Virus genome (UHGV): UHGV-0126763
Source: a virus
Length of the DNA stretch: 37,920 bases
Strand: one strand, 5' to 3'
Shown: positions 50 to 24,814 of the stretch, piece after piece
Numbering within the stretch: position 1 is the stretch's first letter
Layout of the letters: each line of letters starts with the position of its first letter
Program-made: the position numbers and the translations under genes
Notes under the pieces: generated by a model
What the model saw: only the letters and a program-made list of their open reading frames with translations
Database searches by the model: none
What the model was told of the DNA's origin: nothing

Positions 50-493
50 TCACTCTCCTTTGATGCGAATGCCAGCGGCGCGGATTGCAGCGATGACCTC
101 AGAAACTTTGTATGCCATTACCGTTTGGTAATCATCGTGAAAATCTGTTCGATGAAGCATGCTGCTACGTTCCGGGAGCAGTATTTCCCGCTCCTCCAGT
201 TCTGCTATGCGCTTTTTTGCTGTTTCCAGCTCATCCAGCAGCGCCAAGACGGTAGCCGGATTGGCTGCGGCGATGAATTCAGCATTGGCCTGCTGTTCCA
301 TTTGGAAATCTTCATCGAAACCGCTTTCAGGATGCGCTCCTTCAATTCTGCAAATGGGAAGATATCCAACAACTTCACGATGAATTAGCGCATCACCAGC
401 ATCAAATCTCTCCTCTCCATATTCGAGCGACCACACACCACACGTTGCTTTCTCCGCCGCTTCACGCAGCGCCTGTTTGTTGATGTTGCTCAT
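50..493 (-). CDS. Phage early-left protein, possibly Ead/Ea22-like
   Basis: 147-aa ORF at distal end of the minus-strand early operon; start overlaps stop of upstream ORF (ATGA-type overlap at 490-493); family name from memory only. Confidence 0.55.
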   Translation of the reverse strand: MSNINKQALREAAEKATCGVWSLEYGEERFDAGDALIHREVVGYLPICRIEGAHPESGFDEDFQMEQQANAEFIAAANPATVLALLDELETAKKRIAELEEREILLPERSSMLHRTDFHDDYQTVMAYKVSEVIAAIRAAGIRIKGE

Positions 494-2105: not shown

Positions 2106-3000
2106 TGGCAACCTCCAGTTTCGCTTTGCATTCTATGTAAATGGCTTGTACGTTCTGCTGCAATTTCATTCCAGATGTCAGGCGATATGCTTCTGCAAAA
2201 TATCGCTTCAAATCATCCATCTTTTCTGCCTGAGCCATTTCATCACAAAGAAGTTGTGCTTTATCCGTTATTTCCTGCTGGCGTTTCCGTTCATCTTCGC
2301 GGATATCTTCCTCTGATTTGTACGGCATAACTGGTTCAGTCCATACACCTTCTTCTTCGTTTAGTACGTGAATAGCACTATCAAGACGTGATGCCTTAGG
2401 CCAATACTTGCTTGCACGCTTTACGACCGTCTTTCGCGCCATCTCATTCCAGTGATTTACCCATGGCCCTTTATCGCTGAATGCCGCCTTGCTTGTTTTC
2501 CTTACAGCCTCAATTTCAGCCAGACTCATCTCTTCCGTTAGATAATCACCTGCTGGCGTCTTAACTGTGCAGTAAACGCCAACGATATCACCACGATCAC
2601 CGAAGGCGTTGTATTTATGGGTTGGTGCTTTATCAAGCCCGTTTGACTCATAGGTATCGTTAGCATGAACAAGTTTTGCCTGACCCCATGAGATAACACC
2701 AGACTCCATTGCAATATGGAGCAATCCCATATAGCTGATATCAAGGCAAACCATGCCGTCGCGCGGAACCAGATAAGCCAGTTTGCTGGCCGGGTTTAAG
2801 GTGATGCCGATCGCCGCAACATTGATGATGGCGTTCTGTGCGCTGGTTGGATTTGCCAGTGCTGTTTTAGCCAGGTAATCATTTTTCTGGAAATACTGAA
2901 TTGCAAACTGGCTTTCCTTAGCCCATGTCACCGTCTGTTCAGTCAATGCTCCGCAGAATAACTGCTCCTGCTGTTTAACGAATTCAACGATATTGCTCAT
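2089..3000 (-). CDS. recT: RecT-family single-strand annealing recombinase
   Basis: 303 aa; GPWVNHWNEMARKTVVKRASKYWP segment matches the conserved RecT core as recalled from E. coli Rac RecT; ATG with GGAG RBS. Confidence 0.85.
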   Translation of the reverse strand: MSNIVEFVKQQEQLFCGALTEQTVTWAKESQFAIQYFQKNDYLAKTALANPTSAQNAIINVAAIGITLNPASKLAYLVPRDGMVCLDISYMGLLHIAMESGVISWGQAKLVHANDTYESNGLDKAPTHKYNAFGDRGDIVGVYCTVKTPAGDYLTEEMSLAEIEAVRKTSKAAFSDKGPWVNHWNEMARKTVVKRASKYWPKASRLDSAIHVLNEEEGVWTEPVMPYKSEEDIREDERKRQQEITDKAQLLCDEMAQAEKMDDLKRYFAEAYRLTSGMKLQQNVQAIYIECKAKLEVASEQTI

Positions 3001-3308
3001 GCAGCTTCTCCATAAATATGTCTGCGTTTGAATATTGCGAAGGCATATTCAGCCTTAACTCTTTCGGTTATTGCATCCCAGAACCATTCAGCGGCTTTTT
3101 CCTGATAGTCACAGTCATCATCTTCCAGCCAGTCGATAGCGTCCTTAGTGTGTTCATCTGGCTTATATGAGCGAAGCATTTCGCTTATTGGGTCGCAACG
3201 TTTGCAGAGGCGATCAACTTCACTGTTGATTCGTTCGTAATCATCATCGGTAAAACTTGCGATGATTTGCGATATTTCACGCTTATCATTCAGAGTCAGA
3301 ATCATCAT
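2997..3308 (-). CDS. Hypothetical phage early protein
   Basis: 103-aa acidic ORF, ATGATG start, stop overlaps recT start. Confidence 0.55.
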   Translation of the reverse strand: MMILTLNDKREISQIIASFTDDDYERINSEVDRLCKRCDPISEMLRSYKPDEHTKDAIDWLEDDDCDYQEKAAEWFWDAITERVKAEYAFAIFKRRHIYGEAA

Positions 3309-3393
3309 CTTTCTCCTGTTCTTTGTGCTGATTGAGCATTTCTTTCATCTGACGAATGAATTCTTCGTCTGACCAGTTATCTGTAAAACTCAT
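3286..3393 (-). CDS. Small hypothetical protein (35 aa), not in ORF track
   Basis: Hand translation MSFTDNWSDEEFIRQMKEMLNQHKEQEKDDDSDSE; stop overlaps ATGATG start of downstream gene; weak RBS. Confidence 0.3.
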   Translation of the reverse strand: MSFTDNWSDEEFIRQMKEMLNQHKEQEKDDDSDSE

Positions 3394-3624
3394 GGACGGC
3401 CTTGTTGTTTCAAAATATCCCAAAGCTTTTCGAGCAAACTTTTCATTCTTGGTTGTTTAAAGTCTGCTCCGGTTAAAATGTTTTTTCGTGAATGCTGCAC
3501 CGATAAAATCGGGTTGAAAGGGCGAACCGATGCCGCCCCTGCAATAGCGAACTGTTGCATAGGATGCTCCTTCTGTTTGATTGCATAACGAAAACGCCTC
3601 GAATGAAGCGTTATTGGTATGCAT

Positions 3625-3648
3625 ATAAAAAGGCCCTCACATTGGAGG
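3625..3648 (-). terminator. Intrinsic terminator-like hairpin in early-left operon (tL-like)
   Basis: Minus strand reads GCCCTC-caatgt-GAGGGCC followed by TTTTTATATGC. Confidence 0.45.
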
Positions 3649-3778
3649 GCAAAGAAGATTTCCAATAATCAGAACAAGTCGGCTCCTGTTTAGTTACGAG
3701 CGACATTGCTCCGTGTATTCACTCGTTGGAATGAATACACAGTGCAGTGTTTATTCTGTTGCTTATTCCAAAGCAAAT

Positions 3779-4021
3779 TTAACCATCAACAAACTCTTCT
3801 GGTAATTTATCAACCAGTTGATGACTTATTATCAGCCATTTGCCATCCTTCGTTTCGTATGCATATTTCTGGTCTTTTATCATCATGTGTTCGGCTACTG
3901 CCCTAACTGCCTGATCGGTGACATCTTCTCTCTTTCCTACCCACATTCCTTTTTCAGTGTTTAATGTTCCTTGAAAAATACGACCGCTTAATGGGCTTGC
4001 GCCCATAGTTTTTACTCTCAT
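3779..4021 (-). CDS. Hypothetical phage early protein
   Basis: 80-aa ORF immediately downstream of N; ATG with GAGAG RBS. Confidence 0.6.
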   Translation of the reverse strand: MRVKTMGASPLSGRIFQGTLNTEKGMWVGKREDVTDQAVRAVAEHMMIKDQKYAYETKDGKWLIISHQLVDKLPEEFVDG

Positions 4022-4031
4022 GTATCAGCTC

Positions 4032-4358
4032 TCAAATAAGTGGTTTGCTGCCTAATTTCATTTTCTGGCGACCAACACAAGTCACACCCATTTCACTGCG
4101 TGGCTTGCTGTACCATGTGCGCTGATTCTTGCGTTCAATACGTTGCAGGTTGCTTTCAATCTGTTCGTGGTATTCAGCCAGCACCGTAAGGTCTATCGGA
4201 TTCAGTGCGCTTTCTACTCGTGATTTCGGTTTGCGATTCAGCGAGAGAATAGGGCGGTTAACTGGTTTTGCGCTTACCCCAACCAACAGGGGATTTGCTG
4301 CTTTCCATTGAGCCTGTTTCTCTGCGCGACGTTCGCGGCGGCGTGTTTGTGCATCCAT
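4032..4358 (-). CDS. N: Antitermination protein N
   Basis: N-terminal arginine-rich motif MDAQTRRRERRAEKQAQWKAANPLL matches lambda N as recalled; AGGAG RBS; nutL lies immediately upstream. Confidence 0.9.
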   Translation of the reverse strand: MDAQTRRRERRAEKQAQWKAANPLLVGVSAKPVNRPILSLNRKPKSRVESALNPIDLTVLAEYHEQIESNLQRIERKNQRTWYSKPRSEMGVTCVGRQKMKLGSKPLI

Positions 4359-4556: not shown

Positions 4557-4587
4557 GCCCTTCTTCAGGGCTTAATTTTTAAGAGCG
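4557..4587 (-). promoter_or_regulatory. nutL: nutL (boxA CGCTCTTA plus boxB GCCCTGAAGAAGGGC hairpin)
   Basis: Minus strand reads CGCTCTTAAAAATTAAGCCCTGAAGAAGGGC between the OL operators and N. Confidence 0.85.
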
Positions 4588-4631
4588 TCACCTTCATGGT
4601 GGTTAGTGCGTCCTGCTGATGGCTTAAAATA

Positions 4632-4712
4632 TACCTACAGGTAAAACCGTTGTCTATACCTGCAGGTAAATAAAATTGGTGTGAGAGTTTACCTGTTTGA
4701 ATTTTCAGGTAA
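4632..4712. promoter_or_regulatory. OL operator cluster (PL region)
   Basis: TACCTACAGGTA at 4632-4643, perfect palindrome TACCTGCAGGTA at 4657-4668, split half-sites TACCTG-N10-CAGGTA at 4690-4711; same motif family as the OR sites. Confidence 0.6.
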
Positions 4713-4730
4713 TTAATTTTTTGGATTGAT

Positions 4731-4754
4731 ATAAAAAAGCCCGCTTTGCGGGCT
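4731..4754 (-). terminator. Intrinsic terminator after the repressor operon
   Basis: Minus strand AGCCCGC-aaa-GCGGGCT stem-loop followed by TTTTTTAT, directly after the stop of the 4766..5062 gene. Confidence 0.7.
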
Positions 4755-4765
4755 GAAAGGAGATG

Positions 4766-5062
4766 TCAGAAGCTATTTGGATTGCTTGGCCATTGCGGCA
4801 ATTTTGATTCTACCGGGGTGTGTTTGGGTTTGAGTCCGTTTAAGTAGTCAAGACGCTCAATGGCGCATTTATACATAGCAATCTGATCTGATGACATGTC
4901 GTCATATGACATGCCTTTGAACTTCTTAATTATCGTTTCTGCCTCATGTATAAGATTCTTCTTCCTCATGAGTTCAGCTGTATGCTTAGAGCTTACAGGA
5001 GATAACTTTGCCCATATGAAGCAGATGATTACAACAGCGACTACTATGCCGGGTATAAACAT
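4766..5062 (-). CDS. Small membrane protein co-transcribed with repressor (rex-position moron)
   Basis: ORF-track frame 4766..5080 begins with TTG overlapping the cI stop; in-frame ATG at 5062 with GAGGA upstream gives MFIPGIVVAVVIICFIWAKL, a single N-terminal TM helix plus about 75-aa soluble domain. Confidence 0.6.
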   Translation of the reverse strand: MFIPGIVVAVVIICFIWAKLSPVSSKHTAELMRKKNLIHEAETIIKKFKGMSYDDMSSDQIAMYKCAIERLDYLNGLKPKHTPVESKLPQWPSNPNSF

Positions 5063-5076
5063 TTGCTGCTTTATCC

Positions 5077-5763
5077 TCAAACTTTTGGCAGATCGTCCTG
5101 GTCTACGTACCTGGTGTGTTTCACAATAGCTGAAACAAAATGCATTTTATCAACTTCTTCAACAGGAAGAGTGATTGGGCGGTGATCACTGTTTATGCTA
5201 CTAAACTGATAATCACCGTCTCTTGTTTTGTTCATGATCTTTATCATGTTGTGACCGTCTTTGGTCCTTACAAAGACTTCATCACCTGGATGTACTGGCG
5301 TATTTGGTTCAATAACAACATATTCTCCTGACTGAATCCTTGGCCACATGCTGTCACCCTTAACCTTCAGACCGTAAGCATCTTTATCGCCGCTGTAGAT
5401 GCTTAACCAACCGGATCTGAATTCAATCATATCCACTGAGCCATCAACTCCCAAAACGGCTTCACCAATTACCGGAACAAAACCCGCACGAACGTTACCC
5501 GCAAACTCAAGATGGTCCGTAGCTCCAGCTTTACCATCTGCAAGCATGTCCATCCATCCGCGTGGGAGATTAAAAGATTTTTCAATTAGTTCCATCATAT
5601 CGTCAGCAATGCGTTTTTTTCCGCTTTTTCCTTCCGGATACAGCATTCTGGAAACGTATGATGGTTCCCTTTCTATTCGACGAGCCAACTCTGAGGCCTT
5701 TCCATTACAGAATCGGTCTCTTATCTCTATCAGCCTTAGTCGTCTTTGTTCGTATTTATCCAT
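5077..5763 (-). CDS. cI: CI-like prophage repressor (HTH N-terminal domain, S24 LexA-like peptidase C-terminal domain)
   Basis: 228 aa; C-terminal GDSMWP serine motif and later Lys typical of S24 autoproteases; divergent from cro-like gene across the operator cluster; no SD before ATG, consistent with a leaderless PRM-type transcript. Confidence 0.85.
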   Translation of the reverse strand: MDKYEQRRLRLIEIRDRFCNGKASELARRIEREPSYVSRMLYPEGKSGKKRIADDMMELIEKSFNLPRGWMDMLADGKAGATDHLEFAGNVRAGFVPVIGEAVLGVDGSVDMIEFRSGWLSIYSGDKDAYGLKVKGDSMWPRIQSGEYVVIEPNTPVHPGDEVFVRTKDGHNMIKIMNKTRDGDYQFSSINSDHRPITLPVEEVDKMHFVSAIVKHTRYVDQDDLPKV

Positions 5764-5769
5764 GATTTA

Positions 5770-5797
5770 ATTCTATCTTTGATTACCTGCCGGTAAA
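5770..5797 (-). promoter_or_regulatory. Candidate PRM-like promoter for the repressor
   Basis: Minus strand TAGAAT -10 about 6 nt upstream of the cI ATG, weak TTTACC -35 overlapping the leftmost OR site; inferred by analogy to lambda PRM. Confidence 0.35.
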
Positions 5798-5835
5798 TAA
5801 CCTATGGGTATTGATTTGCTTTTTACCTACAGGTA
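5784..5835. promoter_or_regulatory. OR operator cluster (three sites)
   Basis: TACCTGCCGGTA 5784-5795, weaker AACCTATGGGTA 5799-5810, TACCTACAGGTA 5824-5835; tripartite arrangement between divergent cI and cro. Confidence 0.65.
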
Positions 5836-5839
5836 AACT
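5811..5839 (+). promoter_or_regulatory. Candidate PR promoter
   Basis: TTGATT -35 at 5811-5816, 17-nt spacer, TAAACT -10 at 5834-5839 overlapping the rightmost operator; 32 nt upstream of cro start. Confidence 0.45.
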
Positions 5840-5871: not shown

Positions 5872-6102
5872 ATGGAAGAACTCCGCTTGTATCTGAACTC
5901 CCTTTCACTGGAAGAGCAGAGAGAATTTGCCACCAAGTGCGGAACTTCTATCGGCTATTTGAGGAAAGCACTTAGCCGTAATCATGAATTGGGCGCAGCA
6001 CTTTGTGTTCTGATTGAGAAGTTCAGCAATGGTGAAGTGACTCGCAAAGACCTTCATCCGGTTGATTGGGAAAGCATCTGGCCTGAATTAATGGCCGCTT
6101 AA
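5872..6102 (+). CDS. cro: Cro-like HTH regulator
   Basis: 76 aa, first gene rightward of OR, GGAG RBS 7 nt upstream. Confidence 0.65.
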   Translation: MEELRLYLNSLSLEEQREFATKCGTSIGYLRKALSRNHELGAALCVLIEKFSNGEVTRKDLHPVDWESIWPELMAA

Positions 6103-23653: not shown

Positions 23654-24814
23654 ATGGCACAGGGCTTACCTGTATCCAACGTTGTAAACGTTGATGTGAT
23701 CATCTCGCCGAAAGCGGCTACTGGTCGTAACTTCGGCGCGCTGCTGATCCTCGGCTCTTCCACTGTCATTCCGGTGCAGGAACGCATTCGCCTTTATGCG
23801 TCCGTTGAGGACATTGGCGAGGACTTCGGAGTCGACAGCCCGGAATATGAAGCGGCGCAGGTTTTCTTCAGCCAGTCACCGAAGCCGACACAGGTTTATG
23901 TTGGTCGCTGGGCGAAGACGCTGAGTTCTTCCGAGAGTGGAGATACTGAAACCATCGTGCAAGCTGTTAATGCCTGCCTGCAATATACCAACTGGTATGG
24001 GCTGGTTGTCGCTGATGATGTTGTCGCTGGTGGCGATGTGCTTGATGCTGATGACGTGATTGAGGTCGCCAAACTTATTGAAGCGTCCAGCCTTAGCCGT
24101 ATCTTTGGTGTGACCTCTGCCGACGCCGAGATTATCAGCACGACTTCGACGACCGATGTTGCGTCGAAATTAAAGGCTGGCAAGTATGCCCGTACCTTTA
24201 TTCAGTATTCCACCAGCAGCCCTTACGCAGCGGTTTCTGCTTTCGGTCGTGCGTTTACTGTCAATTTCAACGGCAGCAATACCACCATTACCCTGAAGTT
24301 CAAACAGGAACCAAGCGTAACCTACGAAACGTTGACGGTAGGCCAGGCGGCTGCGGTGGATACGAAGAATGCGAACGTGTTCGTGTACTACGCCAACGAC
24401 ACGGCGATCCTGCAACAGGGTGTCATGGCGAACGGTGACTTCTTCGACGAGCGCCACGGGCTCGACTGGTTGCAGAACTACGTTCAGACCAACCTCTATA
24501 ACCTGCTTTACACCAGCACCACCAAAATTCCGCAGACTGATGCCGGTGTGACCCGTCTGCTTTCCAACGTTGAACAGTCCATGGATCAGTCCGTCACGAA
24601 CGGTCTGGTAGCGGCTGGCGTGTGGAATGGTGGACCTATCGGACAGCTGAATTCCGGCGATACGCTGACCAAAGGTTATTACGTGTATGCGCAACCTCTT
24701 TCAGAACAGGCGCAGGCCGACCGAGAAGCTCGCAAAGCACCGTTAATTCAGGTGGCCTGTAAGCTGGCTGGCGCAGTTCATTATGCCGATGTGCAGATCA
24801 ACGTGGTTCGCTAA
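23654..24814 (+). CDS. Putative tail sheath protein
   Basis: 386 aa, first large gene of tail module, followed by tube-like and chaperone genes; assignment by position and size. Confidence 0.5.

Follow-up and report, generated by a model that had tools for sequence, protein, structure and literature searches.

A conserved split half-site element at the OL3 position of mEp043-type lambdoid phages, a candidate auxiliary operator

The switches of lambdoid phages are a textbook case of lysogen stability being determined by the number, spacing, and affinity of operators. In lambda, the third left operator, OL3, is a normal 17-bp operator located 20 bp from OL2. In phage 933W, only two of the operators are found at OL. 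The 933W repressor has only five operator sites, which are 15 bp long and follow a different consensus from the one described below, and their cooperativity departs from the lambda paradigm (PMC3317979). The cI repressor of coliphage mEp043, whose immunity type is considered here, is annotated as similar to 933W CI; no split site is described for 933W in PMC3317979. Widely spaced operators are known from the C repressors of phages P2 and WPhi, whose half-site centres lie 2 to 3 helical turns apart and flank promoter elements, with the DNA bent on binding and whole-turn changes in spacing tolerated (PMC1904263). These are phage immunity repressors acting on widely spaced half-sites and provide a precedent for the element reported in this study.

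The window analysed is the whole 37,920-nucleotide stretch of UHGV virus genome UHGV-0126763 and represents a lambdoid phage. Its immunity region was of the mEp043 type, sharing 98% identity with coliphage mEp043 (c-1 and wild-type records), and its early region was lambda/Sf6/HK620-like. The late and structural region (window positions 8000-32000) was nearest to Citrobacter phage Omnitron and to vB_EcoM-689R2-type phages (terminase, portal, DUF3383, and baseplate); as the late and early affinities differ, the genome is a typical mosaic. The whole OL region was present in public records of mEp043 and of ∼50 complete E. coli genomes. A literature search with the mEp043 operators and the operator strings found no paper on the operators of this immunity type, and its OL/OR system is classed here as an uncharacterised member of the lambdoid switch family. 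Reading leftward on the minus strand, the order of features was cI, orf104, terminator, A/T block, split element, OL2, OL1, PL, nutL boxB, and N. Those flanking the split element are given below by window position.

4032..4358, minus strand: N antiterminator gene, the first of the PL operon (ORF; Pfam N36, E value, 1.5e-26; ∼98% identical to lambda N DNA)
4557..4571, minus strand: nutL boxB hairpin GCCCTGAAGAAGGGC (sequence reading and inverted-repeat scan; the DNA matches lambda, where Nutl is annotated)
4628..4656, minus strand: PL promoter, TAGACA-17-TATATT (promoter scan, 10/12; "putative PL" annotated at the homologous place in mEp043)
4632..4643, unstranded: OL1, TACCTACAGGTA, over the PL spacer and −10 (−12 to −23)
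4657..4668, unstranded: OL2, the perfect palindrome TACCTGCAGGTA, abutting the PL −35 (−37 to −48), 25 bp centre-to-centre from OL1
4713..4722, minus strand: A/T block upstream of PL (AAAAAATTAA in PL orientation; conservation, 0.92), in a position common to several immunity types
4738..4754, minus strand: intrinsic terminator of the cI-orf104 immunity operon (terminator scan; RNA fold, −12.6 kcal/mol; z = −4.1)
4766..5080, minus strand: orf104, downstream of cI in the immunity operon (ORF, 104 aa; phrog_10450, unknown function, E value, 1.4e-54)

The original prediction had assigned the operator cluster to OL, and the context backs that assignment: N and nutL boxB lie downstream on the minus strand, PL is overlapped by two 12-mers, and an S24-type cI gene is located upstream. 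Given this PL/nutL/N context, together with the recurrence of the same operators in the cI-cro interval at spacings of 25 and 15 bp, the identification of the cluster as OL is well founded. Operators that overlap PL and lie upstream of nutL and N are the arrangement of a lambdoid CI/Cro switch. The boxB sequence we take to be identical to that of lambda, and the PL start was placed at the A at position 4620 by homology to lambda ATCAGCAGG in an alignment with lambda. As 12- to 16-bp palindromic operators, OL1 and OL2 would occlude the PL −10 and −35 sequences. The gene orf104 overlaps the end of cI by 4 bases, precedes the operon terminator, and occupies the position of lambda rexB; it could be an exclusion or conversion gene expressed in the lysogen.

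The right side of the immunity region carried the following features.

5077..5763, minus strand: cI repressor gene, 228 aa (Pfam Peptidase_S24, E value, 1.4e-17; phrog_4 and phrog_5736; residues 1-80 100% identical to mEp043 cI)
5784..5795, unstranded: OR3, TACCTGCCGGTA, which holds the predicted PRM −35 (TTTACC)
5799..5810, unstranded: OR2, AACCTATGGGTA (3 mismatches), 15 bp from OR3 and 25 bp from OR1, abutting the PR −35
5824..5835, unstranded: OR1, TACCTACAGGTA, overlapping the PR −10 (TAAACT, 5834-5839)
5872..6102, plus strand: cro-like gene, 76 aa (ORF; phrog_35 transcriptional repressor; Cro annotated in mEp043)

Thus, divergent cI and cro genes flank three operator repeats that lie over PR and PRM, and OR1 sits on the PR −10 in the same way as OL1 on PL. 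OR2 was kept at its position in six other loci with four distinct OR sequences. PRM (window 5763-5797) was predicted as TTTACC-16-TAGAAT, its −35 being the outer half of OR3. With 7 nt between the end of its −10 and the cI ATG, PRM probably yields a leaderless cI mRNA, like its lambda counterpart. The cI protein combines a predicted N-terminal helical DNA-binding domain with an S24 LexA-like C-terminal domain, and its translation contains the self-cleavage features of S24 proteins, namely, GDS138M, K175 (37 residues apart, as in LexA), and A93-G94. Residues 1-74 matched the phrog_5736 and phrog_4 repressor families, and no Pfam HTH match was obtained at an E value of <0.01. A single-sequence AF2 model placed five helices in residues 3-75 at a pLDDT of only ∼60 (40 overall), and a sequence search of the PDB with cI found no relative.

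In the window, the 12-mer family TACCTNCAGGTA was enriched, with 16 matches at ≤2 mismatches against 4.9 expected and none of 100 shuffles reaching 16. When relatives were compared, the operator consensus with flanks was TTTACC-N4-GGTAAA, in which the outer bases were fixed and the inner four variable (TACC[T/C/G/A]NN[A/G/C]GGTA). The OL2 position of relatives was occupied by TACCTATAGGTA, TACCTACAGGTA, or TACCCATGGGTA; the inner bases of OL2 vary symmetrically among lineages (TACCTGCAGGTA, TACCTATAGGTA, and TACCCATGGGTA) such that the palindrome stays perfect. Elsewhere in the window, TACCAACTGGTA at 23986-23997 was at chance level. A remote candidate operator of the form TTACC-N4-GGTAA (TTACCGTTTGGTAA, window 118-131) lies within an Ea22-like ORF (50-493, minus strand) and is very likely coincidental; as the motif is identical in heteroimmune HK620 and in the Stx2a phage Stx2_PV12-16, it belongs to the Ea22-like gene.

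Beyond OL2, the original prediction had recognized the half-sites TACCTG (4690-4695) and CAGGTA (4706-4711) separated by 10 bp instead of adjacent. The positions given for these half-sites and for OL1 and OL2 were all right, and the separation was exact, the interval being TTTGAATTTT. Since the conserved unit in relatives is TTTACC-N4-GGTAAA with variable inner bases, the element is better written TTACC-N14-GGTAA (4689-4712), located 21 bp from OL2 and at −69 to −92 from PL. Its parts are as follows.

4689..4693, unstranded: promoter-proximal half-site, TTACC on the plus strand and GGTAA in PL orientation (−69 to −73)
4694..4707, unstranded: 14-bp interval between the cores, comprising the 10-bp spacer and the inner bases of the half-sites; 4 of 14 columns invariant
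4708..4712, unstranded: promoter-distal half-site, GGTAA on the plus strand and TTACC in PL orientation (−88 to −92)

The half-sites agree with the five canonical operators in the part that does not vary (the outer bases TACC and GGTA), but their centres are 19 bp apart, compared with 9 bp in canonical sites, a difference of exactly 10 bp in all 17 enteric lineages described below. OL therefore holds only two operators of the same geometry rather than three, the third element having N14 instead of N4. About two helical turns separate the two half-sites, which share a face of the DNA, as in widely spaced operators. TACCTG-N(1-30)-CAGGTA had a single occurrence in the window and none in 100 shuffles, and TTACC-N14-GGTAA arose anywhere in the 38 kb in 55 of 2,000 block shuffles; the element is unlikely to have arisen by chance. 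This anatomy is solid.

To place the element among relatives, public viral and metagenome contigs were scanned with the OL2-(−35)-OL1 module only, the split element being absent from the query. The enteric set (TAGACA −35 and lambda-like PL leader) comprised 42 distinct sequences, which were reduced to 17 representatives at <90% identity. The split element was present in 17/17 of these lineages at a distance of 43 bp (from its TACC to the OL2 TACC), with no indels, and both cores were intact in 15 of the 17 representatives and 40 of the 42 distinct sequences. Because the 17 lineages share ancestry, part of this conservation, and of the major-allele frequencies of 0.99 for the distal core TTACC and 0.98 for the proximal core GGTAA, is inheritance. 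The frequency was 0.79 in the 14-bp interval, 0.68 in the inter-operator columns, and 0.46 upstream of the A/T block. Conservation also extended beyond the cores: the interval contains an invariant TCA (plus-strand TGA, 4698-4700), ACTTTT follows the proximal core, and the distal half is consistently ATTACC rather than TTTACC. The element is, as judged from this alignment, under constraint.

The original prediction had offered three options, namely, a degenerate operator, a site for looping, and a site for another protein. In its decaying form, the first of these is argued against by the intact element and fixed OL2 distance in 15 of 17 diverged lineages. A nonfunctional relic, formed when an ancestral OL3 was disrupted by a 10-bp change, could account for the fact that removing 10 bp restores TTACCTGCAGGTAA, which is the same as OL2 except for the first base of the 14-mer, but neighboring columns have drifted to 0.68 while the element kept its form and place. 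The conserved dyad could instead be a hairpin or terminator for plus-strand transcripts, given that the plus-strand arms can pair and are followed by TTAATTTTTT. The stem is weak, however (7 bp with 3 GC pairs and a 10-nt loop; −6.8 kcal/mol), the plus-strand fold was no better than that of shuffles (z = −1.2), and the inner stem did not covary (TG...GG and TC...GG in relatives); moreover, no plus-strand gene in need of termination is located there. The terminator scan made no call at the split element, and an intrinsic terminator was rejected. Relic and hairpin together are accordingly regarded as very improbable explanations.

The consensus of the host LexA (SOS) box is CTG-N10-CAG, which is contained in TACCTG-N10-CAGGTA, and the window does have CTG and CAG 10 bp apart around an A/T-rich centre. 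Relatives, however, keep TTACC and GGTAA and not CTG and CAG (CTG...CGG, CTC...GGG, and CTG...GGG), and 11 of 20 positions match the LexA consensus; there is hardly any chance that the element is a LexA box. The CRP, FNR, Fis, and ArgR consensus sequences were compared with the interval by eye, and none fits.

Two heteroimmune groups of relatives (L062-L066 and L068-L092) carry a cI protein whose C-terminal domain is 80 to 88% identical to that of the window but whose N-terminal domain is only 29 to 33% identical. They share with the window the PL/nutL/N module, the 25-bp OL1-OL2 spacing, and the right half of OL3 at the same place, and they differ in their operators (TTTAGC or TTTATC-N5) and in lacking a half-site shifted by +10 bp. 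Their OL3 is normally spaced (TTAATC-N5-GCTAAA or TTTATC-N5-CATAAA), with its centre 33 bp from OL2. If a canonical operator of the window type were to end at the proximal GGTAAA, its centre would fall at the same 33 bp, and this shared position identifies the proximal half-site as the right half of OL3. Where the canonical left half would lie, the window type has only WWTTCA, and an intact left half is found 10 bp further out. The bases at the place of that distal half-site are TTCAT in lambda and TTCTT or TTCCT in the L062 type; as they are unrelated despite a shared adjoining A/T block, the distal TTACC is specific to the immunity type of the window. The conservation of the element is solid, and its positional homology and immunity-type specificity are likewise shown by these sequences. 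That the distal TTACC occurs only where the operators themselves contain TTACC argues, more strongly than any other indirect evidence, that the split element may be read by the same protein.

In lambda (L150), the window type, and the heteroimmune L066 type alike, 99 to 100 nt separate the A/T block, AAAAT(A/T)AATT, from the PL start. This constant distance indicates that the immunity-specific OL cassette is of constant length across heteroimmune phages, and it suggests that phasing of the A/T block relative to PL may matter. Like lambda OL3, the split element is a third repressor-type element upstream of OL2 and OL1 and outside the PL core, lying between OL2 and the immunity-operon terminator with its A/T block. 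It differs from lambda OL3 in that its centre is 38 bp from OL2, its half-sites are 10 bp further apart, its recognition sequence is another, and the present cI and lambda CI have unrelated N-terminal domains.

The lambda position homologous to the split element is the IHF/UP region upstream of PL, for which a dual promoter system and control by IHF were reportedly described by Giladi in 1992. The window resembles this region in the distance of its A/T block from PL and in a weak promoter-like pair upstream of PL, and it differs in having a cI-type half-site in place of the IHF core of lambda (TATGAA, on the other strand). The element might therefore mark a weak tandem promoter upstream of PL, similar to lambda pL2 and with an UP-like A/T block, in which the half-site appearance would stem from a −35-like TTTACC, the −10 would lie within GGTAAACT, and repressor action would be optional. 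Two candidate pairs recur across lineages. The first, ATTACC-16-TAAACT (7/12), has the same −10 as PR and a −35 of the same kind as PRM. The second, TTCAAx-18-TAAAAT-like (7 to 8/12), includes the invariant TCA in its TTCAAx hexamer, a possible pL2-like −35, and would start ∼44 bp upstream of the PL start. Lambda pL2 starts 42 bp upstream of the PL start, close to this candidate. Both pairs are weak, however, falling below the 9/12 threshold, and neither was called by the promoter scan; the −10 of the TTCAAx pair is variable (AATTTT, TAAAAA, or TAAATA in several lineages), and the L062 type keeps TAAACT without any −35. Selection on promoter strength would not hold a 3/6 hexamer such as ATTACC invariant, and a promoter leaves both the dyad symmetry and the exact identity to the operator cores unexplained. 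As the main explanation, a tandem promoter is considered unlikely.

A host architectural protein such as IHF could also act at this place and modulate PL as it does in lambda, one or both cI-like half-sites then being incidental. Besides sharing the distance of the A/T block, the three immunity types all carry [A/T]TCAA-N4-xTA at one fixed place, preceded by an A-tract ∼9 bp upstream. Against this, the best conserved match to WATCAANNNNTTR averages 2.1 mismatches, and 350 window positions (∼1%) do as well; the ATCAA of the heteroimmune types is simply the OL3 half-site TTTATC plus AA; and the distal TTACC destroys the lambda-like site orientation (4 mismatches). The invariant C-C/G-G cores and the dyad symmetry are likewise not explained by IHF. 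An IHF site at the conserved position was rejected, since the match there is at the 2-mismatch level, above the limit of 1, and the half-site takes the place of the lambda-like core, and a host architectural site is on the whole improbable.

The comparisons speak for a functional repressor site in the position of OL3, with which simple auxiliary binding and looping would be alike compatible, as would a promoter or host-factor role of the conserved bases outside the half-sites. The preferred reading, to which we give an even chance of being right, is that the split element serves cI, and perhaps Cro, as an auxiliary operator equivalent to OL3, the DNA-binding domains sitting one turn further apart than on a canonical site. 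We infer cI binding, its geometry, and its regulatory consequence from the sequence comparisons. According to this proposal, the absent normal left half of OL3 would be replaced by the perfect half-site one helical turn (10 bp) further out, beside the A/T block, so that a cI dimer, possibly also Cro, would contact both half-sites on the same DNA face. The N-terminal domains of cI would then be spread by ∼19 bp instead of 9, which could be allowed by a flexible tether of ∼20 residues (residues ∼73-95) preceding the S24 dimerisation domain, as suggested by the sequence and by a model of low confidence. A split site of this kind would be weaker than OL1 or OL2 and dependent on help, either through cooperation with OL2-bound repressor or through an OL-OR loop, as at lambda OL3. 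When bound, it would also cover contacts of RNA polymerase or a host factor with the conserved bases between the half-sites. In four lineages (L106, L115, L118, and L119), a further TTACC in direct orientation precedes the distal half-site by 22 bp and OL2 by 66 bp; it sits between the immunity-operon terminator and the A/T block, and this suggests that phased arrays of half-sites may exist.

Several points count against an OL3-equivalent operator bound by cI, among them the shared ancestry noted above and the non-enteric loci described below. Binding of cI alone does not explain the conserved bases outside the half-sites (TCA, ACTTTT, and ATTACC), and one protein would have to accept half-site separations of both 9 and 19 bp. 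We know of no lambdoid CI protein for which this has been documented, and such a binding mode would be unusual for a lambdoid CI. The P2 C and WPhi C repressors differ from the present case in several respects: their half-sites are direct repeats rather than inverted, the proteins are small, unrelated to the S24 cI, and not LexA-like, and all of their operators are widely spaced, compared with one variant among compact palindromes here.

A composite of these elements may be put forward more tentatively. The split element would be the bipartite operator of a whole lambdoid immunity group, in which one LexA-like CI dimer sits on half-sites two helical turns apart and straddles a pL2-type −35-like hexamer beside an UP-like A/T block, the extended OL3 acting as a low-affinity sensor for OL-OR looping or for control upstream of PL. 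We regard this fuller version as possible but doubtful. If true, the same repressor would use two geometries, compact at OL1, OL2, and OR1 to OR3 and extended at OL3.

Outside the enteric lambdoids, TACC-N4-GGTAT-TGAC-N6-TTTACC-N4-GGTA (OL2, −35, and OL1) was observed in ∼24 diverged lineages (metagenome contigs L151-L194 and two genome loci), and this promoter-operator design is, from such sequence matches, apparently widespread. The split element was not found in these ∼24 non-enteric lineages with the same operators (TTGAC-type −35), including Paraburkholderia xenovorans (L020), nor at a Stenotrophomonas locus with the same operators. As such loci lack it, the repressor does not intrinsically require the split element, which, in the genomes compared, appears as a trait of the lambdoid PL region and not of the whole repressor family. 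In L020 (P. xenovorans LB400, 2900-3960), a 136-aa protein without S24 is 64% identical to the cI N-terminal domain; it adjoins OR- and OL-like clusters of TACC-N4-GGTA operators with 25- and 15-bp spacings, as in the window. The module of operator and DNA-binding domain seems to span Beta- and Gammaproteobacteria and, judging from this locus, can occur without a self-cleavage domain.

The operator map (TTTACC-N4-GGTAAA with spacings of 25, 15, and 33 bp) can be used for immunity typing and for reporter design in mEp043-type prophages, a practical value that is modest. If the repressor binds the split element, mEp043-type phages would encode a LexA-like phage repressor that tolerates two half-site spacings, and the element would offer a natural setting in which to study the contributions of domain tethers, DNA bending, and cooperativity to operator strength.
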